Shown: piece by piece, positions 10,280 to 35,102 of the stretch
Layout of the letters: every line of letters begins with the position of its first letter
Position numbering within the stretch: position 1 is the stretch's first letter
Assembly (NCBI GenBank): GCA_022711115.1
Contig: JAKLFP010000004.1
Coordinates: 112,648 to 176,647 of the forward strand
From: Candidatus Omnitrophota bacterium
GTDB taxonomy: Bacteria > Omnitrophota > Omnitrophia > Omnitrophales > Aquincolibacteriaceae
DNA: 64,000 nucleotides
Direction: 5' to 3'
Made by a program: the position numbers and the translations under genes
The notes under the pieces: generated by a model
What the model saw: only the letters and a program-made list of their open reading frames with translations
The model's database searches: none
What the model was told of the DNA's origin: nothing

Positions 10280-10301
10280 GAATATGAGAGTTGGCTTTGG
10301 G

Positions 10302-17333: not shown

Positions 17334-18654
17334 CTGGCACACTGTTTACACTTTATACCGGACACATAGGTTACACTTTTTTGTCTTATTTTAAAGTGCT
17401 TTTTCTAAAATGAGCCCAAACGGATCTTCTTTGGGAGCGAATTTTCCGCTGGCTTCATCGAAAAATCCAAGGTCATACTCCTTAAAAGAAACCTCCCAGA
17501 TCCCATCCTCCACTAACCGAATTCCCACGGGTTGATTCGCCAAAGCGCAGCTGATATGAATCTTTAGATTCTTTATACAGATTCTGCCACAATGGGTCAC
17601 AAGCATTGTTTTGTCGTGGCCAGGGTAGGTGATATCGGGAAGCCCTCGATAAGGGGTTTGAGATTTTTGATATAAATCGCCCGGGCATTTCATTCCAAGG
17701 GCTTGGTGCGGCCTTTCGAAATTGTACTCCTTCATAAACCGATAAAACTTTTCTTGTTGCTGCAGAAAGCCGAATGCCGGAGGCTGTGTTGCTTCCAGCT
17801 TGAGCGTTCGGTGCATTCTCTCATGCCGACCGTTTTGTTGGGGGCATCCTGGCTCGATCCTCTCGAGTTGAATCCCTAACCGGATCCACCAAACCGAAAG
17901 TTTTGTTAATCCCCAGGCCGAATTCCCGGATGCGAACGGGATCCCATGATCGCTTCGAATGGCCCCGGGAAGGCCATATTCCTTGAAGGTCTCCTCAAAT
18001 ACCCTATAAGCGGTCGTTTCTCGGGTGCTTGTAAGGGCTTCACAGTTAATTAAAAATCGGGTCGCAAAATCAGAAATCGTCAGCGGGTAGCAATAAACCT
18101 TCTTCCCTAATTTAAACTCACCTTTAAAATCAACACACCACAGGTCATTAGCCCCTTTCGGATTGGAAAGATATGTTGCCGTCGCTCGGTAGGGGGATCT
18201 TTGCCTCCGTTTCTTGACAAGATCATGCCGGTCTAATATTTCATGAACTGTGCTAACAGCGGGTAGTTTGATTTCGGGGTGGCGTTTGGAAACTAATTCG
18301 CGGATTTTAGGAGCGCCCCAGTTTGGTTTTTCCCTTTTAAAGCGAACGATCAATTGCTCGATCTCGAAGGGAAGCTGATTGGGATGCTTATGTGGAGCTC
18401 TCGATCGATCAAAAAGGGCCACCGAACCAAACTCATGGTAACGTTTCCAGAGTTTGTATCCGGTGACCCTTGACATTCCAAATTCCCGGCACAATGGCGC
18501 CATCTTTTCGCCTGACAAAAGACGGCCGATAAATTTCGTTCGTTCATCCATCACACATGTCTCCTTCCATGGCATATGCGCCCCCTTTGTTAGGTTCGAT
18601 ATGCCTGAAAGTGTAAACTATGTGCTCAGAATGAACTGTAAACCATGTGCCCGG
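17334..18654 (-). mobile_element. IS481-family-like insertion sequence (~1.3 kb) with compound terminal inverted repeats
   Basis: Left end 17334-17376 (CTGGCACACTGTTTACAC..CCGGACACATAGGTTACAC). Its reverse complement matches the right end 18611-18654 (GTGTAAACTATGTGCTCAG..TGTAAACCATGTGCCCGG). Encloses a DDE transposase gene. Confidence 0.7.
17391..18575 (-). CDS. DDE transposase (HTH + rve integrase core), IS481-like
   Basis: N-terminal HTH (FGMSRVTGYKLWKRY). DDE triad candidates WCVDFKGEF, IRSDHGIPF, NGRHERMHRTLK. Confidence 0.8.
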   Translation of the reverse strand: MPWKETCVMDERTKFIGRLLSGEKMAPLCREFGMSRVTGYKLWKRYHEFGSVALFDRSRAPHKHPNQLPFEIEQLIVRFKREKPNWGAPKIRELVSKRHPEIKLPAVSTVHEILDRHDLVKKRRQRSPYRATATYLSNPKGANDLWCVDFKGEFKLGKKVYCYPLTISDFATRFLINCEALTSTRETTAYRVFEETFKEYGLPGAIRSDHGIPFASGNSAWGLTKLSVWWIRLGIQLERIEPGCPQQNGRHERMHRTLKLEATQPPAFGFLQQQEKFYRFMKEYNFERPHQALGMKCPGDLYQKSQTPYRGLPDITYPGHDKTMLVTHCGRICIKNLKIHISCALANQPVGIRLVEDGIWEVSFKEYDLGFFDEASGKFAPKEDPFGLILEKAL

Positions 18655-21096: not shown

Positions 21097-23781
21097 ATGA
21101 TTAATTTGATATTGCAAAAGATATTCGGCACGCAGAATGCGCGCACGCTAAAAAAGATTTGGCCGATTGTGGCGCAGGTCAATGCCTTCGAACCGGCGGT
21201 TCAAAAGCTCACAGACGGTGAACTTCGTGCCAAGACCGATGAATTCAGGAAACGTTTGGCAGACGGTCAAACGCTTAATGATATTCTTCCCGAGGCATTT
21301 GCCGTAGTACGCGAGGCATCCAAACGCACGACCAAAATGCGGCATTTCGATACGCAGATCCTCGGTGGTATTGTGCTTCATCAGGGCAAGATCGCGGAGA
21401 TGTCCACCGGCGAGGGGAAAACGCTTGTGGCTACGTTGCCCGTTTATTTGAATGCGCTCGAAGGGAAGGGTGTGCATCTTGTAACGGTGAACGATTATTT
21501 AGCCAAGCGTGACCGAAACTGGATGGGACCCATTTACGAATTCCTCGGGCTTACGGTTGGTGTAATCCAGCATGATATTCCCCAGGAAGAACGGCAGGCT
21601 GCTTATGCCGCGGACATCACATACGGAACAAACAATGAATTTGGGTTCGACTACCTTCGCGATAACATGGTCACCAGTCTTGAAATGCGCGTGCAGCGGC
21701 CGCTTCATTACGCGATCGTGGACGAAGTCGACTCGATCCTGATCGATGAGGCTCGGACGCCGCTCATTATTTCCGGCCCGGCAGAAGAATCAACGGACAA
21801 ATATTATAAAGCCCAGCGTGCGGCTCTTTCGCTCCAAGGTCACCGGATTACCAAGGAGGAGGTCGATCCCGAATGGAAAGCAAAGCTGGAACAAATTAAA
21901 AAGGAATGCGATTACATCGCGGATGAAAAAGCCAAGACCATACGGCTGACGGAATCTGGGGAAACCAAAGCCGCGCGGATCATGGGTGTCGCCAATATGC
22001 ACGATTCGGACACCGTGGCCGAGCGTCATCACGTTATCACCGCTTTGCGCGCGAAGGAGTTTTTCGAGCGTGATGTGGATTATGTGGTCAAGGATGACGA
22101 GATTTTGATTGTTGATGAATTCACGGGGCGACTGATGCCGGGGCGCCGTTTTTCGGACGGTCTCCATCAAGCGCTCGAAGCCAAGGAGAATGTGGAAATT
22201 CAACGCGAGAACCAGACGCTTGCCACGATCACTTTTCAGAATTATTTCCGCATGTACAAGAAGCTTGCCGGCATGACGGGTACGGCCGCGACCGAGGCCG
22301 TGGAATTCGACAAAATTTATAAACTAGATGTGGTGGTGGCCCCGACAAACCGCCCCTGTATTCGAGACGATCACGCGGATTGCATCTACCGTACCGAAAA
22401 AGAAAAATTCGACGCCGTGGTGCGTGAAATTGTGGAGATTCATAAAGAAGGCCGTCCGGTGCTGGTGGGGACCATCTCAATCGAAAAGTCCGAGCGCTTG
22501 AGTCGCATGCTCCAGAAGATCAATCTGCCGCATACCGTGCTCAACGCCAAGTACCACGAAAAAGAAGCTGAGATCGTGGCGCAGGCCGGGCAACCCGCGG
22601 TCGTGACAATCGCGACGAATATGGCAGGCCGCGGTACTGATATCGTGCTTGGGCCGGGGATCGCGGAAAAGGGAGGTCTTGCGGTGATCGGCACGGAGCG
22701 GCATGAGGCGCGGCGTATCGACAATCAGTTGCGAGGTCGGTGCGGCCGCCAGGGCGATCCCGGTTCTTCGAAATTTTTCATTTCTCTCGAAGACGAACTC
22801 ATGCGGCTTTTCGGTTCGGATCGCATTTCGGTTTTAATGCAGAGGATGGGGATGCAGGAAGGCGATGAGATCCAGCACCCGCTGATCAGCCGGGCCATGG
22901 AAACGGCACAGAGACGTGTGGAAGCTCATAACTTTGATATCCGCAAACATCTTCTGGAATATGATGACGTCATGAACCGTCAGCGCGAATTGATCTATGG
23001 CGAGCGCGATCTCGTGCTCAAAGGAAACTACGAAGAACTAAAGAAACATTTATTTGCGATGTTCGAAAATGTCGTCGAAAACATGGCGGTGACTTATGTG
23101 AATCCGGATATCCGCGAAGAAGAGAAAGATCCCGAAGGGTTCATCACGGCTCTCGGAGAGCGGTTTGGCGTAAATTTTCGTGAATGTGTGGACCAAAATC
23201 TGGACAGCATCGATGCTCTTCTTGAGGCTATCGAAAAAAAGATCCAAGAAGCATTTCAGACGCGCGAACAATCGTTCGGTTCCGAGCGGATGCAGTACCT
23301 TTTGAAATTTATTTTACTTCAAGTGCTCGACACGAAATGGAAAGAACACCTTTATGGATTGGATAATCTCCGTGAGGGGATCGGTTTACGGGCCTACGGG
23401 CAGCGCGATCCGCTGGTAGAATACAAGCGCGAGGCTTTCAATATGTTCGATCAGATGACGGACAGCGTCAAAGAAGAAGCCGTGGATCTTCTGTTCCGGG
23501 TGCAGGTGGTTCATGAAACCAAAACAATGAGTGCGGTCGATGCCCAAAAAGCCCAATTTCTTCATCCCGAATCGCAAAGCCTTGCTGAAAGCAAACCCGC
23601 GAAACTTGACCGAGGTTTGAGGAACATGGGGGAACCGTCGGGATTTGCCGCGCGAAATGAAGCCCCGGACAATCGAGCGCCGGAACCGATCCGGCGTGCA
23701 GCCGAAAAGGTCGGCCGTAATGATCCCTGCCCTTGCGGGAGCGGCAAAAAATATAAAAAGTGTTGCGGGGCCAATGGCTAA
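21097..23781 (+). CDS. secA: preprotein translocase ATPase SecA
   Basis: 894 aa. DEAD-like motor motifs. C-terminal zinc-binding [14 protein letters not shown]. Confidence 0.95.
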
Positions 23782-25336
23782 AAATATGCCGGCGTTTGCT
23801 TTTTTAAAAAAGCCGGTTTTTCTTTCCTTCCTTTCCGGTCTTCTGCTTACTTTTTCTTTTCCGAATTTCTCATTCGGTTTTCTTGCCTGGCTGGCTTTTG
23901 TCCCGCTGTTGCTTGCGATCCGGCGCGCCCAAACGGATTTTCAGGCGCTCCGCTGTGGTTTCGTCACCGGGATCACTTTTTTTGGATCCTCGATGCACTG
24001 GATGACTCATGTGACGTTTGTGGGCTGGCTTTTGCTGATCTTGATGGAATCCATTTACTTTATCCTGTTCGCTTGGTGTGTTTTCTTACCGCACAGGGTA
24101 CGAATGCCCCGAGCTGTCATTCTTGTATGGATCGCATTGTCATGGAGTGCCACGGAATGGTTGCGTTCTGAAATGCCGGTGTTCGGCTTCGGATGGAATC
24201 TGCTCGCGTATTCGCAATCTTTTTATCTTACACTGATCCAATCTGCCAATTGGGCAGGCGCGTATGGTCTCGGCTTTTTGATGATGATTGTGAACGTCTG
24301 TGCTGCGGAGCTCTTGAGCCCTCGGCAAAAGAAAGTCAAGGGAGCGGCCGCAGCATTTTTTTCGGTGATCGCTTTGATCTTCATAGTTCTTTTTACTTAT
24401 GGCCAGAAAAGTCTGGCGGATGAGAAAAAACCCGAGGAGTTTTTGCGTATTTCGGTATTGCAAGGAAATATCCCCCAGTCGGTCAAGTGGGAGCTTATCG
24501 CTAAAGAAAAGATTCTTGAGATTTATGAAAAACTCACGCAGCTGGCCGCAACAGAACAGCCGGATTTGATCATTTGGCCCGAGGCCTCGTTTCCCGGCTA
24601 TTTCAACAGAGATCTTCAGTCCGAAAAGATCCAGCAGCTGGCAAGGGAAGTTCAGACACCTCTCCTGGTCGGTGCTCTCGAATGGGAAAGTCGTGAAGAA
24701 GCTTATAACAGTGCTTATTTTTTGGACAAAAAGGGGGTGGTCACTCAACGCTATGACAAACTCCGCCTCGTTCCGTTCGGCGAATACATCCCGCTACAAT
24801 TTCTCTTCGGATGGCTGACTCCGATTGCGAATGCGCTCGGGATCAGTGATTTCAGCGCCGGAAAGGATCTGGTTGTTTTCAAGTGGGCGCGGGAATCCTG
24901 GCCATTCGGGGTTTTAATCTGTTTTGAGGATGTTTTCAGTGATCTTGCCCGCCGTTACGCCGATCGCGGTGCCGTATTTTTGGCCGTGATCACGAATGAT
25001 GCCTGGTTCGGGAAGACCGGAGCGCCTTTTCAGCATCTTCAGGCTTCGATTTTCCGCGCCGTGGAAAATGGTCTTCCCGTTGTCCGATCTGCGAATACAG
25101 GTGTTTCGGCTTTTATTTCCTATCAAGGAGAGGTTCTTTCGACCGTAAAAGATAAACAGGGGAAAGAAATTTTTATGATGGGACAAACATTTGTGGATTT
25201 GCCGCTTATCACCCAGCGGACTTTTTTCCGTCAGGGGGGGTATCTTTTTTCTTGCATGGCCTTTACTTTATGGATTATTTTAGGAATCATCTTCTGGATC
25301 CGGAGCGGAATTTTTAAAAAAGGAATGCTTTTATGA
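23774..25336 (+). CDS. lnt: apolipoprotein N-acyltransferase
   Basis: N-terminal multi-TM domain. CN-hydrolase domain with LIIWPE, K ([10 protein letters not shown]) and C (VLICFE) catalytic residues. ATG 23774 overlaps the secA stop by 8 nt; the tracked ORF begins at 23645. Confidence 0.85.
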
Positions 25337-25645: not shown

Positions 25646-27619
25646 TTATAAACGGTTTTGAGAAAGTTCCGCGTTATTTATTTTACTCCACTCTTGAGAT
25701 AATCGTTTGGCCCTGTCCCATTCCTGCATTTGTTCCAGTTTCTCAAGTTGTTTTTGAGCGGCGGTGACGTTACCTGTTTGGGCATAAGCTTCACCGAGGT
25801 CATAAATCATTTCCGCATTATGAGGATCCAGCGAGCAAGCCTTCTGAAGAAGGTTGATGGCTTTTTCGAATTCTTTGCGGCCTCGAGCTATTAACCCGAG
25901 ATTATAGTAAGCAGGAGATAAAAAAGGGTTGATCTTTATGGCTGCTTCAAGATTTGTGACGGCCTCAGCGATATTTCTCTTTCGGATATTAAAGATTCCT
26001 AAATTGACATAAGCAATGTAATAAGTCGGGAACTTCTGTATAGCTTTCTGGAGTATTTCAATCGCAAGATCCTGTTGGCCCATCGCGTCGTAGAGAAGTC
26101 CTAAATTGTTGTACGAGTCATAAAATTCGGGATCCGATTCGATGGCTTTTTGATAGAGAGGCAAGGCTTTTTCGAAATTTCCGCTTTGATGAAACAAGGT
26201 AGCAAGATTGAAATAGCTAATGGCAAAGTGAGGATCTTTTTCCAGGGCCTTCTCGTAAGACTCTTTGGCTCTTATGGGGTCATGCAAGCTGTGATAGAAG
26301 TAATTCCCCAAATTGTTGTAAGGTCTTGCTTTATTCGGCGATTTTTTAATGACATCTTCCCACAGCAACTGTTCCGACCCCCAAATATGATTGCGGGTGT
26401 AGGCCATGCACGAAAAGATCATAACGACCAGAGAACCCGCCACCATAAAGTAAGACGCCTTCTCTAAAAAAGAAAATAGGCCGATCCCTAGCAGTAATGC
26501 GCATCCGACAAGGGGAAGATACATGCGGTGTTCGAAAATGACGTCCTCAAGCGGGATGACGGATGATTCAACGCTCAAGGTTAGAAAGAACCAGAAGATC
26601 GAAAATGTGATAAAACGGTTTTTTTTGATCGTCCCAAGGGCTGCTGCCAATAACGTCCCCAGCAAAAATAAGCAAGCCAAAGTTTTTGGCTCCCACAAAG
26701 AATGTGCTGTCGGGTAGTCATAATCAAAATTCTGATTCACCGGCAGGAGGAAGAGACGCAGATAGGTGCATAAAACGTTAAGTTCCGTTAAAAAGTAATC
26801 GCCGCGTGGGAGTGCCTTTATGCGGATGGGAAGAAAGTTTTTGGAGTGAATGTTGTAGCTGGCGGCTTCTGAATGAACAAAATAGGGGATAATGGCCATA
26901 GTGGCTAAAAAGGGGATCAGGCGAAGAAGATTCTTTTTGGAAAAATCAAAAAACAGAAACTCAACCAACAAAAGAGCCAAAGGCAATGTAAAAGCAGTTT
27001 CTTTGCAAAACATGGCCGCAAGATTCATTCCAAAGGCCATTCCGTAATGGATCTTGTTTTGAGTCAGTCTTGCTTTGAGGTAAAAAATAATGGTTCCCAA
27101 ATAGAAAAAAGCAGTTAGGGAGGTCATGCGCTGAACAATGTAGGTTACCGATTGGGTTTGGAGCGGGTGCGACAGGAAAATTAAGGAACTGAAGGCTGCC
27201 AGAAAATATCCCGCTTTTTCAGGGTATTTTCCTTTCATTTTAGGGGTTATCAGGAGAAGCGAGATGAGAAAGTAAACCCAAATGGAGTTCAGTAGATGCA
27301 CCGCCAGATTGAAAAGGTGGTAGCCCCACACCTGATCCTTGCCCAGAGCATGATTGATTGCAAAGGACACAAAAGGAAGAAATCGGATTTTGTTATTCGA
27401 AGACCAGATCGCAGGAATGTCCCATGTCTTATAAAGGGAGATATTTTGTTTGATGTTCATACTGTCATCAAACAGGAAGGGAACATGCCAGGTATTGGAA
27501 TAAATCAGGAGCCCGAGAATGAAAATGGCAAAGCATAATAATGGAAACTTATTTTTAAAAATAAATTCCGGTATTTTTTTTTCATTTCGTGATGCGGAAG
27601 TCATTCGTTTTGTCATCAT
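25646..27619 (-). CDS. TMTC-like polytopic membrane protein (GT-C/PMT_2-like N-domain + C-terminal TPR array)
   Basis: About 400 aa with roughly 10 TM helices and an FDD motif after TM1, then at least 7 TPR repeats. This architecture matches eukaryotic TMTC O-mannosyltransferases and bacterial DUF1736-TPR proteins. Confidence 0.65.
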   Translation of the reverse strand: MMTKRMTSASRNEKKIPEFIFKNKFPLLCFAIFILGLLIYSNTWHVPFLFDDSMNIKQNISLYKTWDIPAIWSSNNKIRFLPFVSFAINHALGKDQVWGYHLFNLAVHLLNSIWVYFLISLLLITPKMKGKYPEKAGYFLAAFSSLIFLSHPLQTQSVTYIVQRMTSLTAFFYLGTIIFYLKARLTQNKIHYGMAFGMNLAAMFCKETAFTLPLALLLVEFLFFDFSKKNLLRLIPFLATMAIIPYFVHSEAASYNIHSKNFLPIRIKALPRGDYFLTELNVLCTYLRLFLLPVNQNFDYDYPTAHSLWEPKTLACLFLLGTLLAAALGTIKKNRFITFSIFWFFLTLSVESSVIPLEDVIFEHRMYLPLVGCALLLGIGLFSFLEKASYFMVAGSLVVMIFSCMAYTRNHIWGSEQLLWEDVIKKSPNKARPYNNLGNYFYHSLHDPIRAKESYEKALEKDPHFAISYFNLATLFHQSGNFEKALPLYQKAIESDPEFYDSYNNLGLLYDAMGQQDLAIEILQKAIQKFPTYYIAYVNLGIFNIRKRNIAEAVTNLEAAIKINPFLSPAYYNLGLIARGRKEFEKAINLLQKACSLDPHNAEMIYDLGEAYAQTGNVTAAQKQLEKLEQMQEWDRAKRLSQEWSKINNAELSQNRL

Positions 27620-27739
27620 GCTCCCTGGTGCGGAGCGCTCGTATGAACGTTGCTCCGGTCTTGTGTATCGCTTTTGGTCATGAACTGCCGCGTGAGGGTG
27701 ATTTTAACCGAAAGTTAAGATGACTGGAAATATTAAAAA

Positions 27740-28498
27740 TTAAATAAGAGAAAGACCGCCGTCGGCAATGAGCACTTGCCCGACGATCCAGGAAGATTCC
27801 GGAGAACAGAGGAAAGCGACGACGCGGGCAAGGTCTTCGGGTTTTCCGATCCGGCCGGCCGGGGTGCGTTTCAAGACTTCTGTTTTAAAAGTATCAAAAA
27901 AGGGAAAGGCTTTTAAGGCGTCTGTATCCACTAGACCGCCCGAGACACCATTCACACGGATGCCTTTGGGCATCAGTTCCACACCCAAATAACGGATCAT
28001 GCCTTCTAAGGCCGCTTTTGAAATTCCGATGGCACCGTAATTGGGAATATAGCGGTGAGATCCCAAACTTGAAATAGCGATGATGGAACCCTCTTTTTTG
28101 GGCTCCATGATCGGAATGACTTTTTGGACCAAGGAAAGAAAGGCTTTTGTGTTGATATTGAACGAAAGGTCCCACTGATTCATTTTGAGTCGATGGACAG
28201 GTTTGAACGCGCCGAGAGCCGCGTTATGAATCAGAATGTCGATCGTCCCGAAGGTTTTAAGAACATTTTCAATCAAAGCGGGATGGGCATCAAAATCGCC
28301 GACATTAGTTTGAAAAATATCGGTTTTGACGCCCTTAGCTTGGATTTCTTCCGCAGTCTTTTTTGCAGCTTCTTCATTTTGAAGATAATTGATCGCGATA
28401 TTCACCCCTTCCTCTGCAAGACGAAGGGCCGTAGCCTTGCCGATACCGCGTGATGCTCCCGTAATGAGAGCCGTTTTGCCTTTCAGATGCGTTTTCAT
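27740..28498 (-). CDS. SDR-family enoyl-ACP reductase, FabL-like
   Basis: TGASRGIGKA cofactor motif. Y-x6-K catalytic spacing (YGAIGISK), typical of FabI/FabL rather than FabG. SSLGS.RY..NY...G.SKAALE...RYL.VEL.PK.I.VN.VSGG..DTDALK.FP closely follows B. subtilis FabL. Start taken at MKTHLKGK. Confidence 0.65.
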   Translation of the reverse strand: MKTHLKGKTALITGASRGIGKATALRLAEEGVNIAINYLQNEEAAKKTAEEIQAKGVKTDIFQTNVGDFDAHPALIENVLKTFGTIDILIHNAALGAFKPVHRLKMNQWDLSFNINTKAFLSLVQKVIPIMEPKKEGSIIAISSLGSHRYIPNYGAIGISKAALEGMIRYLGVELMPKGIRVNGVSGGLVDTDALKAFPFFDTFKTEVLKRTPAGRIGKPEDLARVVAFLCSPESSWIVGQVLIADGGLSLI

Positions 28499-28622
28499 GA
28501 GCGATAAGATATCAGAAAAGATCAAAAATCGAAATAAAAACTTAGAGTCATTCATAAAAGTCAATCATTTCAATAAAACCCCATAATGTTCAAAGGAGTT
28601 TTTTAGGGCACAAGAACTTATC

Positions 28623-29345
28623 GTGGTTCATCGTTTTTATCGAGTTTTCAAAAAAGAAGCTTTGGGCAAAAAGATAGCATGTGCTATAATTTCCTGCCCA
28701 AAAGCAGAACTTAATGTGAATTCTATCTATCAGGGACTACGGTCTTTTCAGCGCAAAATACTGGATGGTTTGGTACGGCACTTTGCCCATCATGCATTGG
28801 AATTAAGAGCTGAAAAATTTACCAGGCTTTTTGAAAATCAGATACCCGAAAGAAGCCGGATCTTGGATCTGGGCGGGGGTTGGGGTTTTTATGCAGAGCC
28901 TCTCAAACAAAGGGGCCATGAGCATTTGATCCTGGATGTCGTGAAACCAGGGTATCAAAAAGCCCCTGTGGTGCTCTATGAGGGCACAAAGATCCCGTTT
29001 CCGGATCAAAGTTTTGATGTGACGCTTCTTGTGACCATGCTTCATCATGTGGACGATCCGGAAAGCCTTTTTCGTGAAGTTTATCGCGTGACCAGAAAAA
29101 AAGTCGTGGTGATCGAAGATCTTTATCATCATGCGGTTGGTCGTTTGTGGACCATAGGCCGTGATCGGCTTTTAAATATGGAATTTATGAGTCATCCGCA
29201 TCAATTTCGGAAACATGATGAGTGGCTTGTTTTTTTTCAGAAACAGAAATTCGCAATACTTGATTTTAAATCGGCCTATACTTGGTTGTCGGGTTTCCGT
29301 ATCTTGAACGGCGTTTATATTTTGGAACCAAATAAAAATTTATGA
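28623..29345 (+). CDS. class I SAM-dependent methyltransferase
   Basis: Motif I ILDLGGGWGFYA. Motif II acidic LDVV. Methyltransf_11-like size. Confidence 0.7.
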   Translation: MVHRFYRVFKKEALGKKIACAIISCPKAELNVNSIYQGLRSFQRKILDGLVRHFAHHALELRAEKFTRLFENQIPERSRILDLGGGWGFYAEPLKQRGHEHLILDVVKPGYQKAPVVLYEGTKIPFPDQSFDVTLLVTMLHHVDDPESLFREVYRVTRKKVVVIEDLYHHAVGRLWTIGRDRLLNMEFMSHPHQFRKHDEWLVFFQKQKFAILDFKSAYTWLSGFRILNGVYILEPNKNL

Positions 29346-29749
29346 CAACGCTCGCGATCGAAAAAGTGCTCTGGGTCAAGGAAGGCGAGGGAATTGCGGC
29401 TTGCGGTAAAATCCCTGCTGATTCGGAATTTTTTAAAGATCATTTTCCGGCTTTTCCGGTTCTTCCGGGTGTTTTAGCGCTTGAAATGCTCAAGCAGACC
29501 GCGGAGCGCTATCTGGATTCTATGGGGGAGCAACGCGGGCAGCACTATTTTTTAAAACAGATTCGCGCGACACGTTTTACAAAGTACCTCCGTCCCGGAG
29601 ACGAATGGGAAAGCAGATTGACGCTTTTACAGTATTCGGACGAAGAAACGGTTTGGGATGCAAAATTATTGCACCATCAGGAAGTGGCAGTTTCGGCGAA
29701 ATTAATTTTGGCTAAAGTTAAGAATCCGCAATCATCAGCATTATCCTAG
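29342..29749 (+). CDS. hot-dog fold beta-hydroxyacyl-ACP dehydratase, FabZ-like
   Basis: DHFPAFPVLPGVLALEMLKQ matches the FabZ HFPGNPVMPGVL..E..AQ active-site region. Start overlaps the MT stop (ATGA). Confidence 0.65.
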   Translation: MTTLAIEKVLWVKEGEGIAACGKIPADSEFFKDHFPAFPVLPGVLALEMLKQTAERYLDSMGEQRGQHYFLKQIRATRFTKYLRPGDEWESRLTLLQYSDEETVWDAKLLHHQEVAVSAKLILAKVKNPQSSALS

Positions 29750-29765
29750 GAGGAGAAAGAGAATC

Positions 29766-30173
29766 ATGGAAAACGAGCTTTTTGTAAAAGTTCAGCAGAC
29801 ATTAGCCGGAGCCTTGGGTGTGGAACAAAGTGAAATCACCCCTGAAGCATCCCTTAAGCGCGATCTCGGTGCCGAATCGATAGACTTTATTGACATTATT
29901 TTTCGGCTTGAAAAAACTTTTGATATCAAAATCCCGAGCGGCGATCTCTTTCCCAGCCATCTGCTGAATGACGAGAAGTTCGTTAAAGAGGGGATAATCA
30001 CCGCAGAAGGACTCAACGAGCTCCGCACGAAACTCCCTTATCTCGAATTAGGTGAATTTTCCAAAGACCCGCAAATTACCAAGCTGGCGGATCAATTCAC
30101 CGTCAATATGATACTTCGTTATCTTCAGGATCGTTTAGGCAAGCATTCCTGCTCTGATCAATGCTGCTCGTAA
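29766..30173 (+). CDS. acyl carrier protein with an unusual ~55-aa C-terminal extension
   Basis: DLGAESIDFIDI carries the phosphopantetheine-attachment Ser. 135 aa against about 78 for canonical ACP. Cys-rich tail HSCSDQCCS. Confidence 0.65.
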   Translation: MENELFVKVQQTLAGALGVEQSEITPEASLKRDLGAESIDFIDIIFRLEKTFDIKIPSGDLFPSHLLNDEKFVKEGIITAEGLNELRTKLPYLELGEFSKDPQITKLADQFTVNMILRYLQDRLGKHSCSDQCCS

Positions 30174-30547
30174 AGCAACAACACGCTGCGCTAAAGGGCG
30201 TTGGCGTTGATCTCATTTCCTGCTTGCGAATCAAACAATTCCTAGCGCGTCATGGTGATTATGTTCGTGCGCGATTTCTGAATGCCTCCGAACGCCGTTC
30301 TTTCAAGCGATTGTCTTTACAGAACTTTGCCGAACTTTTTACGGCGAAGGAGGCTTTCTTTAAAGCCTGCGGGGAAGCATGGATGGGGCTTGAGGGGTTT
30401 CAGGGTATGCGCATGAAACGGCGGAGTGGTGATTTTTTTGAAATGGAATGGCGTCCCGCCAGACACTCAAAAGTGATTTATCGCGGAGAAGGCCATTTTT
30501 TCCGTAGCGGTGATCTTGTCGGCGCGCAAGCGATGATCTGGAAATAA
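30161..30547 (+). CDS. AcpS-type 4'-phosphopantetheinyl transferase (holo-ACP synthase-like)
   Basis: GVGVDLISCLRI (compare AcpS GIGTDIVEI.R) and KEAFFKA (compare KEAVSKA). 128 aa. Confidence 0.6.
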   Translation: MLLVKQQHAALKGVGVDLISCLRIKQFLARHGDYVRARFLNASERRSFKRLSLQNFAELFTAKEAFFKACGEAWMGLEGFQGMRMKRRSGDFFEMEWRPARHSKVIYRGEGHFFRSGDLVGAQAMIWK

Positions 30548-30548
30548 T

Positions 30549-30986
30549 ATGCGCTGGCTTCTTCTGGATAAAGTCCTCTCGATTCACAAAGGTAAAAAAG
30601 CGATTGCCTCTTCTAAAGTTCCCCAGGCTCCTTATAGTTCCGAGATCCTCCTTGTCGAAATGATGGCACAAGCCGGTGGTTTGCTTGTGGGTGCCGAGAG
30701 CGATTATCAGAAAGATCTTATTTTTGCCAAAATCGAAAATGTGACTTTTACGGAAATGCCGAAATCCGGGACGCCGATTCAAATCGAAACTTGGGCCGAC
30801 GGCCTTGGCCCGGACGGCGGTTGGTTGGAAGGCCATGTGACTTGTGCGGAGGGGGTTTTGGCTAAAGGAAAATTTCTGCTGATGACCGTGGGGCGCCTTA
30901 TCCCTGAGCACGCGAGTTCCATTACGTTTCATGAGGCTTTTATGAATTATTTCAAAGTTCGTGAAAAAATTTTTGTGGAATCATGA
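30549..30986 (+). CDS. second hot-dog fold dehydratase-like protein
   Basis: 145 aa. LLVEMMAQAGGLL core typical of FabA/FabZ/ApeI-like hot-dog proteins. Confidence 0.5.
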   Translation: MRWLLLDKVLSIHKGKKAIASSKVPQAPYSSEILLVEMMAQAGGLLVGAESDYQKDLIFAKIENVTFTEMPKSGTPIQIETWADGLGPDGGWLEGHVTCAEGVLAKGKFLLMTVGRLIPEHASSITFHEAFMNYFKVREKIFVES

Positions 30987-32269
30987 GCGCGAAACGCCGG
31001 GTGGTTATCGCGGGATTGGGCGCTATTACGGCCTGTGGCAAAGGGTGGGAGCCTTATTGGAATGCCGCGATTCAAGGTCGCTCTGCCATTGTCAGTGCCA
31101 AACCGCTCAACCTCGGCAACTTTCCGTTTAAAAATGCCGGCATGATTCCTGATTTTGACGCGAAGGAATTCGTTGAGAATCGAAAATCGATCAAGGTGAT
31201 GTCGCGAGAAATTCAGCTGGCTGTGGGGGCCAGCCGTCTGGCTCTTCGGGATGCGAAACTTTCTCCGGAGAATTACGATCCGACGCGCATTGGAGTGACT
31301 CTCGGAACCGGGATCATCAATAATGATCTCGATGAGATCGGTATCGGTTTTCGGAATAGTTTGGATGAATCCGGGCATTTTTCCATGAATAAATTCGGAC
31401 AGGAAGGTATCCGGTCGCTTTTCCCTCTTTGGTTTTTGAAATATCTTCCGAACATGCCTGCTTGTCATGTTTCGATGGTGAACCAGCTTCGCGGTCCGAA
31501 CAACACCGTGACAACTTCTTCTGCGGCAAGCACCCAAGCGATCGGAGAAGCCTATCATGTGATTGAACGAGGTGATGCGGATGTGATGCTCGCGGGAGGG
31601 ACGGATTCTAAGCTCAATGCCATGGGCATTTCCCGGTTGCACCTTCTCGGATTTTTGTCTCAGCATGAAGATGCCCCCGAGAAAGTTTATTGCCCCTTTG
31701 ATGAAAAGCATGATGGGATTGTACTCGGAGAAGGTGCGGGCATTATGGTGCTGGAGTCTTTGGAAAGTGCGAAAAGGCGCGGGGCGAATATTTATGCCGA
31801 AATCATTGGCTATGGTTCTTCTTCGGATTTTAATTATGACCCGCGCGATGCGGATGATTTTACGGGCAAGCGTGTAGCCATCCGGCGAGCCCTTGAAGAT
31901 GCCGGACTTGAGCCCGAGGACGTGAATGTGATCGTTGCAAACGGAAGCGGGATCCCCCAGGAGGATGTCCAGGAATCGCTTGCGATCCAATCTTTTTACG
32001 GACAAACTTTCGGAAAGCTTCAAGTCACCGCAGTGAAACCTGTGACAGGGCATCTGGTCTATGGGTCAGGGAGTGTGGAGGCAATGGTCGCTGCCTTAAC
32101 CACCAAGAAAAAACTGATCCCTCCGGTCATCAATCTTGTAAAGCCGGATTCGAATTGCCCATTGCCTTTTGTTATCGGGAAGACAAAATCCTGTGAAGTG
32201 AAGGTAGCGGTTATCAATACATTCGGTTTTGGCGGGCAAAATGCATCCTTGGTGTTTCAACATGTCTAA
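30983..32269 (+). CDS. ketosynthase-like chain-length-factor partner (KS-beta, non-canonical active site)
   Basis: Thiolase fold. At the FabF ATACTSG position it has TTSSAAS (Cys to Ser). HGTGT is replaced by ANGSG. Second His retained (GHLVYGSGSVE). Confidence 0.75.
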   Translation: MSAKRRVVIAGLGAITACGKGWEPYWNAAIQGRSAIVSAKPLNLGNFPFKNAGMIPDFDAKEFVENRKSIKVMSREIQLAVGASRLALRDAKLSPENYDPTRIGVTLGTGIINNDLDEIGIGFRNSLDESGHFSMNKFGQEGIRSLFPLWFLKYLPNMPACHVSMVNQLRGPNNTVTTSSAASTQAIGEAYHVIERGDADVMLAGGTDSKLNAMGISRLHLLGFLSQHEDAPEKVYCPFDEKHDGIVLGEGAGIMVLESLESAKRRGANIYAEIIGYGSSSDFNYDPRDADDFTGKRVAIRRALEDAGLEPEDVNVIVANGSGIPQEDVQESLAIQSFYGQTFGKLQVTAVKPVTGHLVYGSGSVEAMVAALTTKKKLIPPVINLVKPDSNCPLPFVIGKTKSCEVKVAVINTFGFGGQNASLVFQHV

Positions 32270-33560
32270 GCGACGCGTGGTTGTGACAGGTATGGGTGCT
32301 GTGACGCCATTGGGCAACAATCTCAAGGATACTTGGCTGCGTATCACGCAGGGAAAATCCGGGATAGGTCCGATCACGCTTTTTGACGCAAGCCGTTTTC
32401 CGACGCGAATCGCGGGAGAGGTGAAAGGATTTCCTTTCGAGAAGTGGGTGGAGCACGACCCGCCGCTTGCTTGCGCGACACGAAGCACATTTTTCGCGCT
32501 TCAAGCCGCTGCGGAAGCTTATAAAGACGCCGGGCTCAGGCCTTTTTGTGTGAATCCGAACCGTTTTGGCATTTATTTCGGGGCGGGGGACAGCGGTATT
32601 GATTTCGAACCTTTTCTAAAAACTCTTTTACCGTCTTTTACGACAAGTGGCAGCGAAATTATTGATAAAGAAAAATATCTGGTGAATTCCAGTCAGCATA
32701 TGAGCGCTCTCCGTGAATTGGAAAGCCAGCCTTTTATGACCGTGACCCACCTGACGCGTCTTTTCGATATCCGGGGACCTGTTTCTAATTGTCTGACAGC
32801 TTGCGCGGCATCTTCCCAAGCGATTGGCGAAGCTTTTGAATGGCTCAGGCGCGGGGATGCAGATGTGATCATGGCCGGAGGAACGCATTCCATGATCTAT
32901 CCGATGGGAGTGGCGGGTTTCAGTTTGTTGACGGCGCTTTCCACGCGCAATGATGCGCCGGAAAAGGCATCCCGGCCTTTTGATAAAAAACGTAATGGTT
33001 TTGTAATCGGTGAAGGTTCCGGTGTTTTAATTCTTGAGGATTTGGATCATGCGCTCCATCGTCAGGCCCAGATTTACGGTGAAATCGTGGGGTATGGTTC
33101 CACTGCCGATGCTTACCGGCTTACGGATATGGACCCGGAAGGCAAGGGAGCTTCCCGGGCTATGGAGATTGCACTTGAAAAAGGCGGGCTTGGGCCTGAG
33201 AATGTGGACTATATCAATGCGCATGGCACATCAACGGTAGTGAATGATTCTCTCGAAACGTTGGTGATCAAAAAAGTGATGAAAGAATATGCGCCGAAGA
33301 TCCCGGTCAGCTCGACAAAATCCATGTTAGGCCATATGATCGCAGCGGCGGGGGGCGTGGAAGCGGCGTTTTGCTTTTTAGCGATGCGCGACTCAATCCT
33401 TCCGCCGACCATCAACTACGAAGAACCGGATCCCGATTGCGATCTGGATTATGTTCCCAATATGGCACGGCGTGCGGAAATTGCTGTGACACTGTCGAAC
33501 TCTTTTGGATTCGGCGGACAGAATATTTGTTTAGCGATGAGGAAATACAATGGCAAATAA
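32262..33560 (+). CDS. beta-ketoacyl-ACP synthase (KS-alpha, FabF/FabB-like)
   Basis: Active-site Cys in LTACAASSQAIGEA. HGTST present. Second His GHMIAAAGGVEA. Start ATG 32262 overlaps the CLF stop (ATGTCTAA). Confidence 0.85.
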   Translation: MSKRRVVVTGMGAVTPLGNNLKDTWLRITQGKSGIGPITLFDASRFPTRIAGEVKGFPFEKWVEHDPPLACATRSTFFALQAAAEAYKDAGLRPFCVNPNRFGIYFGAGDSGIDFEPFLKTLLPSFTTSGSEIIDKEKYLVNSSQHMSALRELESQPFMTVTHLTRLFDIRGPVSNCLTACAASSQAIGEAFEWLRRGDADVIMAGGTHSMIYPMGVAGFSLLTALSTRNDAPEKASRPFDKKRNGFVIGEGSGVLILEDLDHALHRQAQIYGEIVGYGSTADAYRLTDMDPEGKGASRAMEIALEKGGLGPENVDYINAHGTSTVVNDSLETLVIKKVMKEYAPKIPVSSTKSMLGHMIAAAGGVEAAFCFLAMRDSILPPTINYEEPDPDCDLDYVPNMARRAEIAVTLSNSFGFGGQNICLAMRKYNGK

Positions 33561-34644
33561 ATTGATTTTTATGACTGGTGCAACCGGAGTTCTCGGTCAA
33601 GACCTGATCAAAGAACTTCTTGAAACGACAGATGCGGATATCGCGATCCTTGCGCGTGCGAAAAACAGAAAATCTCATGATGAACGCGTTAGAAAGATTC
33701 TCAAATCAATCGGATTGGATGCTCATATGGGAAAGCGCATCCGTGTTGTGGAAGGTGATGTGACGCAGCATAAGTTCGGGATTACCAAAGAAAATCTTGC
33801 CTTTCTCGAAAAAGAAGCAAAGGTTTTTTATCATATTGCTGCGCTTACGGCGCTCAACGGTACCGAGAAGGAGTGCCAGCAAATCAATGTGGGGGGCACG
33901 CAGCACGCACTGGAACTGGCATGGGATCTTCGCAAGAAAGGCAAGCTGGAGCGGTTCGTTTATTTCAGTACCGCATTCGTGGCCGGCAGTGTCTGGCAAC
34001 ATTGTTCGAAGGAGGATGAATTGCCGGAAAAACCGAAGTTTGCAAATTACTATGAATCCAGCAAGTACCAGGCTGAAAGCAGGGTTCGCGAATCCATGGC
34101 GAAAGGGTTGCCGGTGACGATCATCCGGCCGAGTATTGTGGTCGGACATTCCGAGACCGGTGAAGTTTCGGATTTTAACGTGATCTATCCGTTTTTTAAA
34201 TTGTTCGCTCACGGGGCCATTTCAAAATTACCGACGCATGTTGAAAACACATTTAATATTGTCCCCATTGATTTTGTGATTAAGGCAACGGCCACGATCG
34301 TAAAAAATCCTAAAAGCATCAATAAAACCTTTCATTTAGTATCTCCTCATCCTCCTTCGATCGGCATGCTTTTGAAACTGGCAAAAGATGAATACCCGAA
34401 AGTGCCATCGATCGAAGTGATGGATATCAAGGATTTTCAAAAAACAAAATTGAACGCGCAGGAACAAATGGTTTTTACGATTATGGAGCCTTATCTCGGC
34501 TACTTGAACGGGGACCTGACCTTTGACATGAGTAATACCCGGGAGATTCTTCGCGGGACTAAGGTTTTACTTCCAAAGACCGATTATAAATTTCTTAAGA
34601 CAATGATTCATTATGCTGTGAAAGCGGGCTATCTAGTCATCTGA
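33550..34644 (+). CDS. stand-alone thioester reductase domain protein (NAD_binding_4 / fatty acyl reductase-like)
   Basis: FMTGATGVLGQDL (GxTGxxG). YYESSKYQAESRV (YxxSKxxAE). Length and motif spacing match terminal R domains. Confidence 0.75.
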   Translation: MANKLIFMTGATGVLGQDLIKELLETTDADIAILARAKNRKSHDERVRKILKSIGLDAHMGKRIRVVEGDVTQHKFGITKENLAFLEKEAKVFYHIAALTALNGTEKECQQINVGGTQHALELAWDLRKKGKLERFVYFSTAFVAGSVWQHCSKEDELPEKPKFANYYESSKYQAESRVRESMAKGLPVTIIRPSIVVGHSETGEVSDFNVIYPFFKLFAHGAISKLPTHVENTFNIVPIDFVIKATATIVKNPKSINKTFHLVSPHPPSIGMLLKLAKDEYPKVPSIEVMDIKDFQKTKLNAQEQMVFTIMEPYLGYLNGDLTFDMSNTREILRGTKVLLPKTDYKFLKTMIHYAVKAGYLVI

Positions 34645-34673
34645 TTTTTTGGCCCATAACGGAGGTAGGTGCG

Positions 34674-35033
34674 ATGAAAAAAACAATGATGTCGATTTTG
34701 CTTCTGGCGATTTTCGGAATGTTCACTTCTTTTGCGATGGCGGAGTCTTCTTATGATCTGGATCCGGCGTCTCCGGTTGAGCAATTGGATGATACGGTTT
34801 CCAGCAATGCCCCTGCGGCTACGGTGAGCGATACGATGAATGCCGAGGACACGACAGTTCAGAGTGAAGTGGAGAAGAAGGAAAAGAAAGAGAAAAAAGA
34901 GAAGAAAGAAAAAAAAGGAAAAAAGAAAGAAACAAAGAAAAAAGCCAAATCCGCCAAGAAGAGCATGAAAAAAGCCGGCAATACCGGTATGAGCGCGAAG
35001 GCACATAAGGCGAAAAAGCAACAGGTTCAATAA
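34674..35033 (+). CDS. secreted lysine-rich low-complexity protein
   Basis: Sec signal (…SFAMA-ESS), acidic middle, then KEKKEKKEKKEKKGKKKETKKKAKSAKK tail. Last gene of the operon before a strong terminator. Confidence 0.5.
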   Translation: MKKTMMSILLLAIFGMFTSFAMAESSYDLDPASPVEQLDDTVSSNAPAATVSDTMNAEDTTVQSEVEKKEKKEKKEKKEKKGKKKETKKKAKSAKKSMKKAGNTGMSAKAHKAKKQQVQ

Positions 35034-35056
35034 GATAAGACAGTTTAATTTTATGA

Positions 35057-35099
35057 GAGGCGTTGTTTCAAGCGTTTGCTTGGAGCAACGCCTTTTTTT
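35057..35099. terminator. rho-independent terminator (bidirectional position)
   Basis: GGCGTTG-20 nt-CAACGCC followed by TTTTTTTG. Sits between convergent genes. Confidence 0.8.
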
Positions 35100-35102
35100 G
35101 AT

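Follow-up and report, generated by a model that had tools for sequence, protein, structure and literature searches.

The gene at positions 25646–27619 (minus strand) of the 64-kb window, the whole stretch of Candidatus Omnitrophota DNA analysed here, encodes a putative bacterial GT-C glycosyltransferase of the TMTC lineage, in which a polytopic membrane domain is followed by a C-terminal tetratricopeptide repeat (TPR) domain. The protein is probably a periplasm-facing GT-C enzyme that uses a lipid-linked sugar and selects its acceptor through the TPR domain. In the ORF listing the coding sequence is complete, running from ATG to TAA, and its 657-residue product is identical to GenBank HOW59922.1, titled 'tetratricopeptide repeat protein [Candidatus Omnitrophota bacterium]'. 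The full-length AF2 model was predicted with high confidence (pLDDT 92.5, pTM 0.90). The GC content of the gene (0.44–0.46) is the same as that of the window around it, and promoter and terminator scans at the gene gave signals no higher than the shuffled expectation. A search of the 64-kb window for a second copy of the family returned none.

Residues 1–414 (26378–27619, minus strand) form the GT-C membrane domain. Two AF2 models (pLDDT 91.2 and 92.5), hydropathy and the positive-inside rule give 11 TM helices and a cytoplasmic N-terminus, the short cytoplasmic loops being enriched in Lys and Arg. The original prediction, made from the letters of the window, had described a membrane domain of ~400 residues, which was confirmed, with about 10 helices, which is corrected here to 11. 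Two large periplasmic loops extend from the domain, EL1 (residues 43–96) and EL4 (residues 253–310), and all of its conserved motifs map to the periplasmic side in the predicted topology. The domain combines the two hallmarks of the GT-C superfamily, a GT-C membrane fold and an acidic motif in the first extracytoplasmic loop.

The odd number of TM helices, together with the N-in orientation, places the TPR array outside the cytoplasm. Six canonical repeats were assigned by Pfam and AF2 to residues 431–630 (25730–26329, minus strand; predicted periplasmic), where the model shows six helix pairs, flanked by an N-cap helix (residues 416–426) and a C-cap helix (residues 634–656). Pfam TPR families scored 85–117 bits on the protein (TPR_17, 117; TPR_1, 105), in strong support of the predicted array; since AF2 shows six canonical pairs, the proposed 'at least 7' repeats exceed this number by one, unless one of the caps is included. 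The region matches consensus TPR and OGT TPR structures. Foldseek, run against the PDB with the full-length model, returned mostly TPR proteins and was uninformative on the membrane domain. Overall, the proposed TMTC1–4 architecture, a polytopic N-domain plus TPRs, agrees with the AF2 models.

The relationship to TMTCs was detected at the level of profiles. An HMM built from 117 bacterial N-domains matched the N-domains of 12 of 12 animal TMTC1–4 sequences with 97–134 bits (hmmsearch), and each match was a single domain covering HMM positions 12–400 of 418. Alignment of the bacterial N-domain with TMTC by hhalign gave a probability of 99.95% and an E-value of 7e-38 over 370 columns, supporting the GT-C candidate that had been proposed; an N-domain of the O-antigen ligase or Wzy type, which the original prediction had named as refuting it, was not seen. 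With the window N-domain alone as query, phmmer reached 46.8 bits against TMTCs. The window protein is ~20% identical to TMTCs and 40–60% identical to its bacterial relatives.

Searches of the isolated N-domain against Pfam, NCBIfam and PDB sequences gave nothing meaningful. PF08409 (DUF1736; gathering threshold 27 bits) had no match at E ≤ 10 to the N-domain or to the loop of residues 246–337 alone, and matched 0 of 45 relatives; TMTCs, as a positive control, scored 94–110 bits. PMT and PMT_2 (PF02366, PF13231) left the window protein unmatched, and 4 of the 45 relatives showed weak PMT_2 matches (best E-value 2.2e-4). DUF2723 matched neither the window N-domain nor the 45 relatives. The lack of a DUF1736 or PMT_2 match in Pfam had also been listed beforehand as refuting the assignment. 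However, both models are poor tests, because PF08409 describes one loop in its eukaryotic form and genuine TMTCs reach PMT_2 only below threshold. A profile of 45 bacterial N-domains searched against 177,635 PDB sequences produced zero matches at E ≤ 10, so that ArnT, Pmt1/2/4, PglB and STT3 were all missed; no TMTC N-domain structure was present in the PDB copy searched.

We then followed the TMTC motifs M1–M7, as defined in PMC7801869, through an alignment of the 117 bacterial relatives and the 12 animal TMTC1–4 sequences (all coordinates on the minus strand). In the TMTC columns, the key residues of M1, M2 (Arg), M3 (Arg), M4, M5 (Asp) and M7 are kept in 100–117 of 117 bacterial sequences. 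F50-D51-D52 (27464–27472) corresponds to M1, the catalytic DD of the first periplasmic loop; D51 is present in 117/117 and D52 in 111/117 relatives, and the pair aligns with the DD of 12/12 TMTCs. The FDD loop motif singled out originally is thus real and no chance tripeptide. M4 is matched exactly (KE(T/Q)xxT) by K206-E-T-A-F-T211 (26987–27004), with K in 116/117, E in 100/117 (Q in 14) and T211 in 116/117 bacterial sequences, and with K, E and T each in 12/12 TMTCs. In TMTC models, M4 binds the donor phosphate and a metal ion (PMC7801869).

Three further motifs, M2, M3 and M5, are each kept in part. R79 (27383–27385) is the Arg of M2 (SHKSYRP), found in 113/117 bacterial sequences and 12/12 TMTCs; the M2 His and Lys and an insert of ~14 residues are missing from the bacterial family in alignment with TMTCs. 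H151-P-L-Q-T-Q-S-V-T-Y-I-V-Q-R164 (27128–27169) corresponds to the TMTC block HPIHTEAVAGIVGR(AD), which contains the M3 Arg. H151, P152 and R164 occur in all 117 bacterial sequences and are common to the 12 TMTCs, while the Asp of the M3 RxD is not kept in the bacterial family. N297-F-D299-Y300-D-Y-P303 (26711–26731), in the TM7–TM8 loop and the Pfam DUF1736 region, aligns with M5 (DW); D299 is Asp in 106/117 (Glu in 7) and in 12/12 TMTCs, and Y300, Tyr in 112/117 relatives, replaces a Trp found in 12/12 TMTCs. M7 (ERxxY), which like M4 supplies phosphate and metal ligands in TMTC models, is represented by E363-H-R365-M-Y367 (26519–26533) with its Arg one residue off: E363, R365 and Y367 are invariant (117/117), Glu and Tyr are shared with 12/12 TMTCs, and the TMTC Arg aligns with H364. 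The M6 PxxP of TM9 was not found, as the TMTC segment PFIPASN aligns with TLSVESS and the prolines are gone. At this position lies E351 (26567–26569), a Glu specific to the bacterial family (117/117) where 11/12 TMTCs have Ala. The missing M2 His and Lys, which lie against mannose in TMTC models, together with the altered M6, suggest that the sugar may not be mannose.

Compared with TMTC1–4 (GT105; PF08409 plus TPR), the window protein shares 11 TM helices, the N-in orientation and a C-terminal TPR domain on the non-cytoplasmic side. The sequence features in common are the DD of M1, the M2 Arg, a TM2 motif YHxxNxxxH, the HPxxT(E/Q)xV...R block with the M3 Arg, KE(T/Q)xxT, the M5 Asp and an M7 of the form E...Y-x-P-x-x-G. 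Beyond the changes in M5, M6 and M7, the window protein differs from TMTCs in two missing segments, NDFWG...SHKS from EL1 and DNPA from EL4. It also carries six TPRs, a smaller number than is usually described for TMTCs. Functionally, the defining activity of TMTCs is O-mannosylation, dependent on Dol-P-Man, of the EC domains of cadherins and protocadherins; neither dolichol nor cadherins are expected here, and the carrier would be undecaprenyl-phosphate rather than dolichyl-phosphate.

By published description, a bacterial precedent is offered by TfpW, the GT-C pilin O-arabinofuranosyltransferase of Pseudomonas aeruginosa. TfpW (646 residues, compared with 657) likewise has a cytoplasmic N-terminus, 11 predicted TM helices, a periplasmic DDx in loop 1 and a C-terminal periplasmic TPR domain. 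Its DDx motif is needed for activity, it places a polyprenyl-phosphate sugar on Ser/Thr of a protein, pilin, and it has a YX6PFX7P motif. Whereas tfpW immediately follows pilA, the gene for its substrate, the window gene has no adjacent pilin gene. The fungal and actinobacterial PMTs (GT39) show no significant sequence match and have one loop occupied by a MIR beta-trefoil domain; in the window protein Pfam detected no MIR domain, and the non-cytoplasmic domain of the model is the C-terminal TPR array. GT-Cs of the ArnT/GtrII type act on lipid A or glycans, lack TPRs and gave no sequence-level match to the family profile. TMEM260 is set apart by the absent DUF2723 match, in a family-model scan only.

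The gene is a typical representative of a huge, poorly annotated bacterial family, which comprises 45,150 clusters at 50% identity and spans many phyla, including Omnitrophota, Planctomycetota, Nitrospirota, Bacteroidota and Thermodesulfobacteriota. Its nearest relatives are Omnitrophota proteins (50–60% identity), followed by proteins of other bacterial phyla (~40%). The 'eukaryote-like' part of the original prediction therefore does not stand: the family is bacterial and no eukaryotic import, and the resemblance reflects common ancestry with TMTC, not a peculiarity of this organism. For the same reason, the description of these enzymes as 'usually associated with ER glycosylation' is misleading. 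NCBI labels the family only 'tetratricopeptide repeat protein', because the 410-residue catalytic domain has no Pfam or NCBIfam model; some JGI annotations call members 'protein O-mannosyl-transferase'. Our search of the literature on bacterial TMTC-like proteins turned up no experimental study, only the TfpW work and one brief reference to prokaryotic homologues.

The neighbourhood of the gene was compared with 79 related loci. As originally noted, lnt (23645–25336, plus strand; LNT_N and CN_hydrolase domains) adjoins the gene, in convergent orientation. The adjacency is incidental, as it occurs in 0 of the 79 loci. Neither lnt nor secA nor the fatty-acyl cluster recurs beside the family gene (0 of the 79 loci), and we dismissed a functional connection with any of them. 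An SDR gene precedes the window gene by 120 bp in the same orientation; a link to this neighbour was likewise dismissed, with an SDR neighbour in one locus of 79. Gene context is not conserved across these loci and hence gives no clue to the acceptor. Tandem sets of 2–6 paralogues occur in 18 of the 79.

Elsewhere in the window, the three ALG10-like genes of the original prediction were verified as DIE2/ALG10 genes (PF04922; 253–1470, 1545–2765 and 6760–8055), scoring 74–87 bits against a cut-off of 27. The supposed 'DPM1-like GT2' (35103–36335), the sole GT2 in the window, instead matches lipid glycosyltransferases of the HpnB/CruG type best, not polyprenyl-phosphate sugar synthases. The DPM1-like label was rejected; across 182 residues, only 22% are identical to the polyprenyl-phosphate-sugar-synthase-type GT2 found beside family genes at other loci. 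Genes for a polyprenyl-phosphate sugar synthase, a GtrA-like flippase, a GtrB-type enzyme or DUF2304 were searched for within the 64-kb window and none was found. Among the 79 related loci, a GT2 of the polyprenyl-phosphate-sugar-synthase type lies within 6 kb of the family gene in 15–21. This GT2 has ~300 residues and C-terminal TM helices, is often co-directional and adjacent, and finds its best NCBIfam matches in AglJ, PpgS, ArnC and Dol-P-hexose transferase; DUF2304 accompanies it in two loci. The three-component arrangement of GtrB-type GT2, flippase and GT-C is accordingly not present in the window and partly present in the family loci. In one related locus (L021), a 1,657-residue SBBP/HYR/CARDB/Fn3 protein is encoded downstream of the family gene, a single anecdote.

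Based on these data, we propose the following model. [quoted passage not shown] By analogy with TMTC, PMT and ArnT, the pocket of these residues would bind a polyprenyl-monophosphate-linked sugar, possibly with participation of a divalent metal; activation of the acceptor hydroxyl would fall to the aspartates of the first loop. The donor, carried in bacteria on undecaprenyl-phosphate, would be made by a cytoplasmic GT2 and then flipped across the membrane. Beside the active site, the periplasmic six-repeat TPR solenoid would select the acceptor, most likely Ser/Thr of proteins in the periplasm or envelope, in line with TMTC and TfpW. We consider catalytic activity very likely and a lipid-linked monosaccharide as donor likely, and we put the chances of a protein acceptor at about even.

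An enzyme of the same class could instead act on a periplasmic glycan or lipid, such as LPS or lipid A, capsule or exopolysaccharide, peptidoglycan or another envelope polymer, an alternative that we regard as possible, if somewhat unlikely. The GT-C would then be the third part of a GtrA/GtrB/GT-C system, and its TPR domain would either hold the polymer or dock on an export machine. Polysaccharides, too, are escorted by TPR domains in bacterial envelopes (BcsC, PgaA and AlgK are examples), so that the TPR domain is no proof of a protein acceptor. However, the nearest sequence relatives of known function are the TMTCs, which are protein O-glycosyltransferases, as are the best structural match, PMT, and the bacterial protein of the same architecture, TfpW. 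The tandem paralogues also resemble diversification of acceptor specificity as in TMTC1–4. Further in the direction of a protein acceptor lies a doubtful extension, in which the whole family would carry out protein O-glycosylation in the periplasm on a wide scale, would be the bacterial ancestor from which the animal TMTCs arose, and would direct the TPRs of its multiple paralogues to beta-sandwich domains of large surface proteins. Candidate targets in that reading would be Ig-, cadherin-, HYR- or Fn3-like domains, paralleling TMTC action on cadherin EC domains.

The remaining alternatives question the assignment itself. Many bacterial Wzy_C proteins have C-terminal TPRs, and PF11846 (Wzy_C_2) reached a marginal 29.1 bits against a cut-off of 28.5; it is nonetheless hardly credible that the N-domain is an O-antigen ligase, a Wzy-type polymerase or a PglL-type O-oligosaccharyltransferase (Wzy_C) with TPRs instead of a GT-C, since the family scan, which found no Wzy_C (PF04932)-type membrane domain, the hhalign match to TMTC and the structural match to PMT all refute this. 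Very improbable, too, is an inactive membrane-anchored TPR scaffold or chaperone that organises envelope assembly without sugar transfer. The bare NCBI annotation and the lack of a donor-synthesis gene in the window would fit such a pseudo-enzyme, and TMTC1 and TMTC2 were themselves first described as ER adapter proteins. However, D51, R164, K206, E363, R365 and Y367 vary little or not at all in 117 relatives that are ~40% identical overall, and this near-invariance of donor- and metal-binding residues indicates selection on the active site; the association of the family with polyprenyl-phosphate-sugar-synthase-type GT2s likewise argues against it. An 11-TM plus TPR architecture is common to TMTC and TMEM260 (PMC10214176), and the weak PMT_2 matches in 4 of 45 members might hint at another eukaryote-type family (TMEM260/DUF2723, PMT/GT39 or ArnT/GT83) or at a recent horizontal gain from a eukaryote. 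Both are most implausible: identity decreases from Omnitrophota through other bacteria to TMTCs, the bacterial clusters are very numerous, the GC content fits the window, DUF2723 and PMT models do not match, and the PDB profile search finds neither PMT nor ArnT.

For the window, these results mean that the gene encodes a normal bacterial GT-C glycosyltransferase and is no sign of eukaryote-like ER glycosylation. For the family, they mean that ~45,000 clusters at 50% identity stand under a bare TPR label, though they are homologous to the human TMTC O-mannosyltransferases. TMTCs are disease genes, mutation of TMTC3 causing cobblestone lissencephaly (cited in PMC7801869), and the bacterial members could be tractable models of TMTC structure and mechanism. 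If the doubtful extension to beta-sandwich targets were true, a major modification of the envelope would be possible in Omnitrophota, a group noted for its giant surface proteins. Collectively, the members of the family suggest that glycosylation in the periplasm may have a large layer still to be explored.

The gene at 25646..27619 on the minus strand runs from ATG to TAA and encodes 657 aa, exactly at the coordinates of the original prediction. Its product, hereafter the window protein, is identical to GenBank HOW59922.1 ('tetratricopeptide repeat protein [Candidatus Omnitrophota bacterium]'), and the GC content of the gene (0.44–0.46) is the same as that of the flanking window. The gene opens with two in-frame ATG codons (MMTK..., window 27610-27625 (-)), and public records differ in the start chosen (657 aa in HOW59922.1, 656 aa in another); the Shine-Dalgarno-like AGGGAG is atypically spaced from both, at 1 nt from the first ATG and 4 nt from the second. 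AlphaFold2 models of the N-domain (pLDDT 91.2, pTM 0.92) and the full-length protein (pLDDT 92.5, pTM 0.90), together with hydropathy, indicated 11 transmembrane (TM) helices; the proposed membrane domain was thus recovered, with 11 helices rather than about 10. An N-cap helix (residues 416–426), six canonical TPR helix pairs (431–630) and a long C-cap helix (634–656) follow. Pfam matches of the full-length protein were to TPR families (TPR_17 117 bits, TPR_1 105 bits, others), all beyond residue ~420, and the expected TPR array therefore exists, with six repeats plus caps instead of at least seven. The K+R counts in the short loops on one membrane side (6, 3, 1, 2, 2, 1) fit a predicted topology that puts the N-terminus in the cytoplasm and the TPR domain in the periplasm. 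The FDD motif is real (F50-D51-D52) and is placed by this topology in the first periplasmic loop.

The N-domains of the animal protein O-mannosyltransferases TMTC1–4 from human, zebrafish and Drosophila were taken from the 'grand alignment' (Additional file 1 of PMC7801869) and compared with bacterial relatives of the window protein (hereafter the family) from a word-indexed search. The window N-domain alone matched the TMTC N-domains at 46.8 bits with phmmer. Profile-profile alignment of the family with TMTC using hhalign gave a probability of 99.95% and an E value of 7e-38 over 370 columns at 20% identity, spanning window residues 23–410. As a specificity control, a profile of 45 family N-domains was searched against 177,635 distinct PDB sequences, including ArnT, Pmt1/2/4, PglB, AglB and STT3; no sequence matched at E<=10. 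The TMTC matches and the empty PDB control together indicate that the family is specifically TMTC-related, not merely a general GT-C group. The core of the original prediction, a TMTC-like GT-C candidate, was therefore borne out by N-domain homology.

The original prediction had named the lack of a DUF1736 or PMT_2 match as grounds for rejection, and the window N-domain (residues 1–428) alone indeed matched neither, giving no meaningful match in Pfam, NCBIfam or PDB sequences. Among the 45 relatives, DUF1736 was matched by none and PMT_2 weakly by four (best E 2.2e-4). With the same tool, TMTC2 and TMTC3 N-domains matched PF08409 (TMTC_DUF1736) at 94–110 bits and reached 19.8–25.4 bits on PMT_2, under its cut-off of 26.1; PF08409 found nothing in residues 246–337 of the window protein, the corresponding loop. 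PF08409 is a 75-position model of a single loop (TM7–TM8) in its eukaryotic form (PMC7801869), so its absence is uninformative on the homology of the other ~340 residues, and the lack of a DUF1736 or PMT_2 match is misleading as a refutation test. An O-antigen ligase or Wzy identity drew one Pfam match, Wzy_C_2 at 29.1 bits, but this match sits at residues 448–536, within the TPR array. PMT (GT39), ArnT (GT83), TMEM260/DUF2723 and Wzy_C ligase identities were rejected by the Pfam, PDB-sequence and fold tests run.

The predicted structure shows a GT-C fold, and the closest structural matches of the model are PMTs. Fold comparison figures were 19.2 for Pmt4, 17.6 for ALG12, 17.3 for Pmt2, 16.8 for AglB, 16.7 for STT3B, 15.8 for ArnT, 15.5 for PglB and 15.0 for AftB, with lower entries down to 8.1 for EmbA. 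When the full-length model was searched with Foldseek through the entire PDB, only TPR proteins were returned (top query-normalised TM-score 0.34), and no solved structure there joined both modules.

Seven TMTC motifs (M1–M7) have been defined around a modelled Dol-P-Man and metal site (PMC7801869). We counted them after aligning 117 bacterial relatives and 12 TMTCs to one HMM. D51 and D52 (117/117 and 111/117 relatives) fall in M1, the DD present in 12/12 TMTCs, so the suggested correspondence with the TMTC catalytic DD holds. M4, KE(T/Q)xxT, is exact as KETAFT: K206 is kept in 116 of the 117 relatives, the E207 position is Glu in 100 and Gln in 14, T211 is kept in 116, and the motif occurs in 12/12 TMTCs. 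M7, ERxxY, is also kept (E363, R365 and Y367 in 117/117, H364 in 115/117; Glu and Tyr in 12/12 TMTCs), with its Arg shifted one residue later than in TMTC. A TM2 block, YHxxNxxxH (residues 100–108), is shared as well: H101, N104 and H108 occur in 117, 116 and 117 relatives and in 11, 12 and 12 of the 12 TMTCs, and the first position, Y100, is Tyr in 103 and Phe in 14 relatives and Phe in 6 and Tyr in 5 TMTCs. Other motifs are retained in part. From M2, SHKSYRP, R79 is Arg in 113/117 relatives and 12/12 TMTCs; the aligned relatives lack both the His/Lys of the motif and a ~14-residue insert. M3, RxD, keeps its Arg (R164, 117/117; 12/12 TMTCs) and the HP..T..V block (H151, P152, T155, V158) but not its Asp. 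The Asp of M5, DW, is kept (D299; Asp in 106 and Glu in 7 relatives, Asp in 12/12 TMTCs), and Y300 is Tyr in 112/117 relatives whereas TMTCs have Trp in 12/12. M6, PxxP, is replaced by TLSVESS, where E351 is Glu in 117/117 relatives; 11/12 TMTCs have Ala. In the topology model, every one of these positions faces the periplasm. Since the motif residues are invariant among relatives only ~40% identical overall, their conservation argues for a working active site, not a degenerate scaffold.

Taken broadly, as a homologous N-domain plus TPR with the same topology, the catalytic DD, M4 and M7, the TMTC lineage includes the window protein. In the strict database sense it is not a TMTC, as PF08409 is unmatched, M6 is missing and only parts of M2, M3 and M5 are kept. 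We prefer the name 'bacterial TMTC-like GT-C' to 'a TMTC'.

The word-indexed search yielded 3,811 relatives among the candidates scored. Exhaustive phmmer over 1.84 billion cluster representatives gave 45,150 matches at E<=1e-3, of which 22,840 reached E<=1e-10 and 6,241 reached E<=1e-30, and a one-genome-per-species scan confirmed at least 587 family loci. The best 79 of these came from Omnitrophota, Planctomycetota, Nitrospirota/Thermodesulfovibrionales, Bacteroidota, Thermodesulfobacteriota/Geobacteraceae/Syntrophales and Anaeromyxobacter. The window protein is 50–60% identical to Omnitrophota relatives and ~40% to those of other phyla. NCBI names relatives 'tetratricopeptide repeat protein', and JGI calls a few 'protein O-mannosyl-transferase'. 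PMC7801869 mentions in passing 'homologues even among prokaryotes'; we found no experimental work on them in the literature. The family is thus bacterial, very large and spread over many phyla; the window protein is one of its ordinary members, and the eukaryotic TMTCs are related to it. 'Eukaryote-like' is therefore the wrong frame, and the protein does not show the ER-type glycosylation that had been hinted at for the organism.

We surveyed the best 79 of the at least 587 loci with flanks of up to 6 kb on each side as the contig allowed. Tandem paralogues (2–6 family genes) occurred in 18. A GT2 of ~300 aa, with TM helices at its C-terminus, recurred in 21 by clustering and 15 by a stricter cut. 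Its top NCBIfam matches, all under equivalog cut-offs, were AglJ, PpgS, ArnC, Dol-P-hexose transferase and PgfS, all polyprenyl-monophosphate sugar synthases. It adjoins a co-directional family gene in loci L028 (twice), L063, L065 and L067, and nearly so in L003. This family-level pairing is what a GT-C using a lipid-linked monosaccharide would predict. Small 3-TM DUF2304 proteins (PF10066; 86 and 92 bits), encoded between GT2 and family gene in L040 (5520-5876 (+)) and immediately after GT2, beside the family gene, in L065 (8746-9117 (+)), may be donor-synthase accessory subunits or flippase-like components. In L021, GT2 and then the family gene come immediately before a 1,657-aa protein (6680-11650 (+)) with SBBP beta-propeller, HYR, CARDB and Fn3-like domains, and in L067 the family gene immediately precedes a Pfam-negative 1,292-aa ORF (7489-11364 (+)); these two anecdotes could be acceptor substrates. 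Beside three family members in L028 lies an 819-aa protein (10358-12814 (+)) with ~8 TM helices and C-terminal TPRs; unmatched by the family HMM at E<=1e-10, it may represent a second, more distant TM-plus-TPR class.

In the window itself, the gene is convergent with lnt (23645-25336, plus strand), which is preceded by secA and the gene for a peptide-chain release factor. Upstream of the family gene, 120 bp away and likewise on the minus strand, is an SDR/FabG-like gene (27740-28564). Beyond it, a divergent lipid cluster comprises a SAM methyltransferase (28623-29345), FabA-like dehydratase (29342-29749), putative ACP (29766-30173), ACPS (30161-30547), hotdog protein (30549-30986), two ketosynthases (30983-32269 and 32229-33560), an NAD_binding_4 'male sterility'-type reductase (33550-34644) and an HpnB/CruG-like membrane GT2 (35103-36335 (-)). 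The content of this compact region (27740-36335) suggests that its product is a glycosylated lipid of the fatty-alcohol, fatty-aldehyde or polyene type. The adjacency to lnt is real here but not a family trait: homologues of lnt, secA, release factor, methyltransferase, FabA, ACP, ACPS, ketosynthase, reductase, the window GT2 and the ALG10-like genes occurred in 0/79 of the best loci (<=6 kb flanks), and an SDR homologue in 1/79. The 64-kb window has no GT2 of the polyprenyl-phosphate-sugar-synthase type. Its single GT2, formerly read as 'DPM1-like', matched HpnB (155 bits) and CruG (138 bits) and is 22% identical to the recurrent GT2 over 182 residues, so that label was dropped.

The three ALG10-like genes are real Pfam matches to DIE2/ALG10 (PF04922) and encode paralogous proteins of ~405–431 aa (253-1470 (-), 1545-2765 (-) and 6760-8055 (-); 87, 79.6 and 73.7 bits, cut-off 27), with the best-scoring stretch only about residues 60–205 in each and no NCBIfam match for any. 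Between them lie an unannotated 585-aa ORF (3638-5395 (+)) and a GDSL/SGNH hydrolase gene (5518-6645), and the region looks like a second, separate GT-C-type cluster. That ORF and those at 49213-51135 (+) (640 aa; its only NCBIfam match, TamB-like, is very weak at 17 bits) and 15419-16495 (+) (358 aa) matched no Pfam family. An IS-type transposase or integrase (17391-18575 (-); rve, rve_3, HTH_32, HTH_28) marks a mobile element. A stand-alone 329-aa TPR-only protein (13263-14252 (+), TPR_1 154 bits) has repeats that cross-match family TPR domains in 72 of the best 79 loci, so TPR-based searches in this genome are easily confounded. On the plus strand, genes for a McsB-like ATP:guanido phosphotransferase (43867-44982), a DUF4140/DUF4139 protein (44988-46697) and a ClpC/ClpB-type AAA+ chaperone (46738-49194) follow one another and resemble a McsB–ClpC module for protein quality control, interrupted by an unusual DUF4139 gene.

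In the models, the conserved acidic, basic and aromatic residues face the periplasm, as does the six-TPR solenoid. We propose that the enzyme would take an undecaprenyl-phosphate-sugar as donor. By analogy with the TMTC models (PMC7801869), K206, R365 and R164 would hold the donor phosphate, and E207 and D299 a metal, with E351 possibly contributing. D51/D52 would activate an acceptor hydroxyl, onto which the sugar is transferred, and the TPR domain would present the acceptor. The sugar need not be mannose, because the part of M2 that touches mannose in the TMTC models is missing.

A glycan or lipid acceptor would accord with the handling of polysaccharides by other TPR domains, with ArnT-type enzymes as close structural neighbours and with a GT2 partner typical of three-component glycan modification systems, yet we consider it rather unlikely. 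A protein acceptor, probably at Ser/Thr, is the favoured reading, to which we would give about an even chance, since TMTCs are the nearest functional relatives, PMTs the top structural matches, and TfpW glycosylates protein. TfpW, a 646-aa enzyme that O-arabinosylates pilin, has 11 TMs, a DDx motif in the periplasm and a TPR at its C-terminus, and is the one bacterial enzyme with the exact architecture of the window protein.

The family exposes an annotation gap: a ~410-residue catalytic domain occurs in tens of thousands of clusters without a Pfam or NCBIfam model. Its sequence relationships raise the possibility that it represents a system for protein O-glycosylation that is widespread in bacteria and from which TMTC descends.
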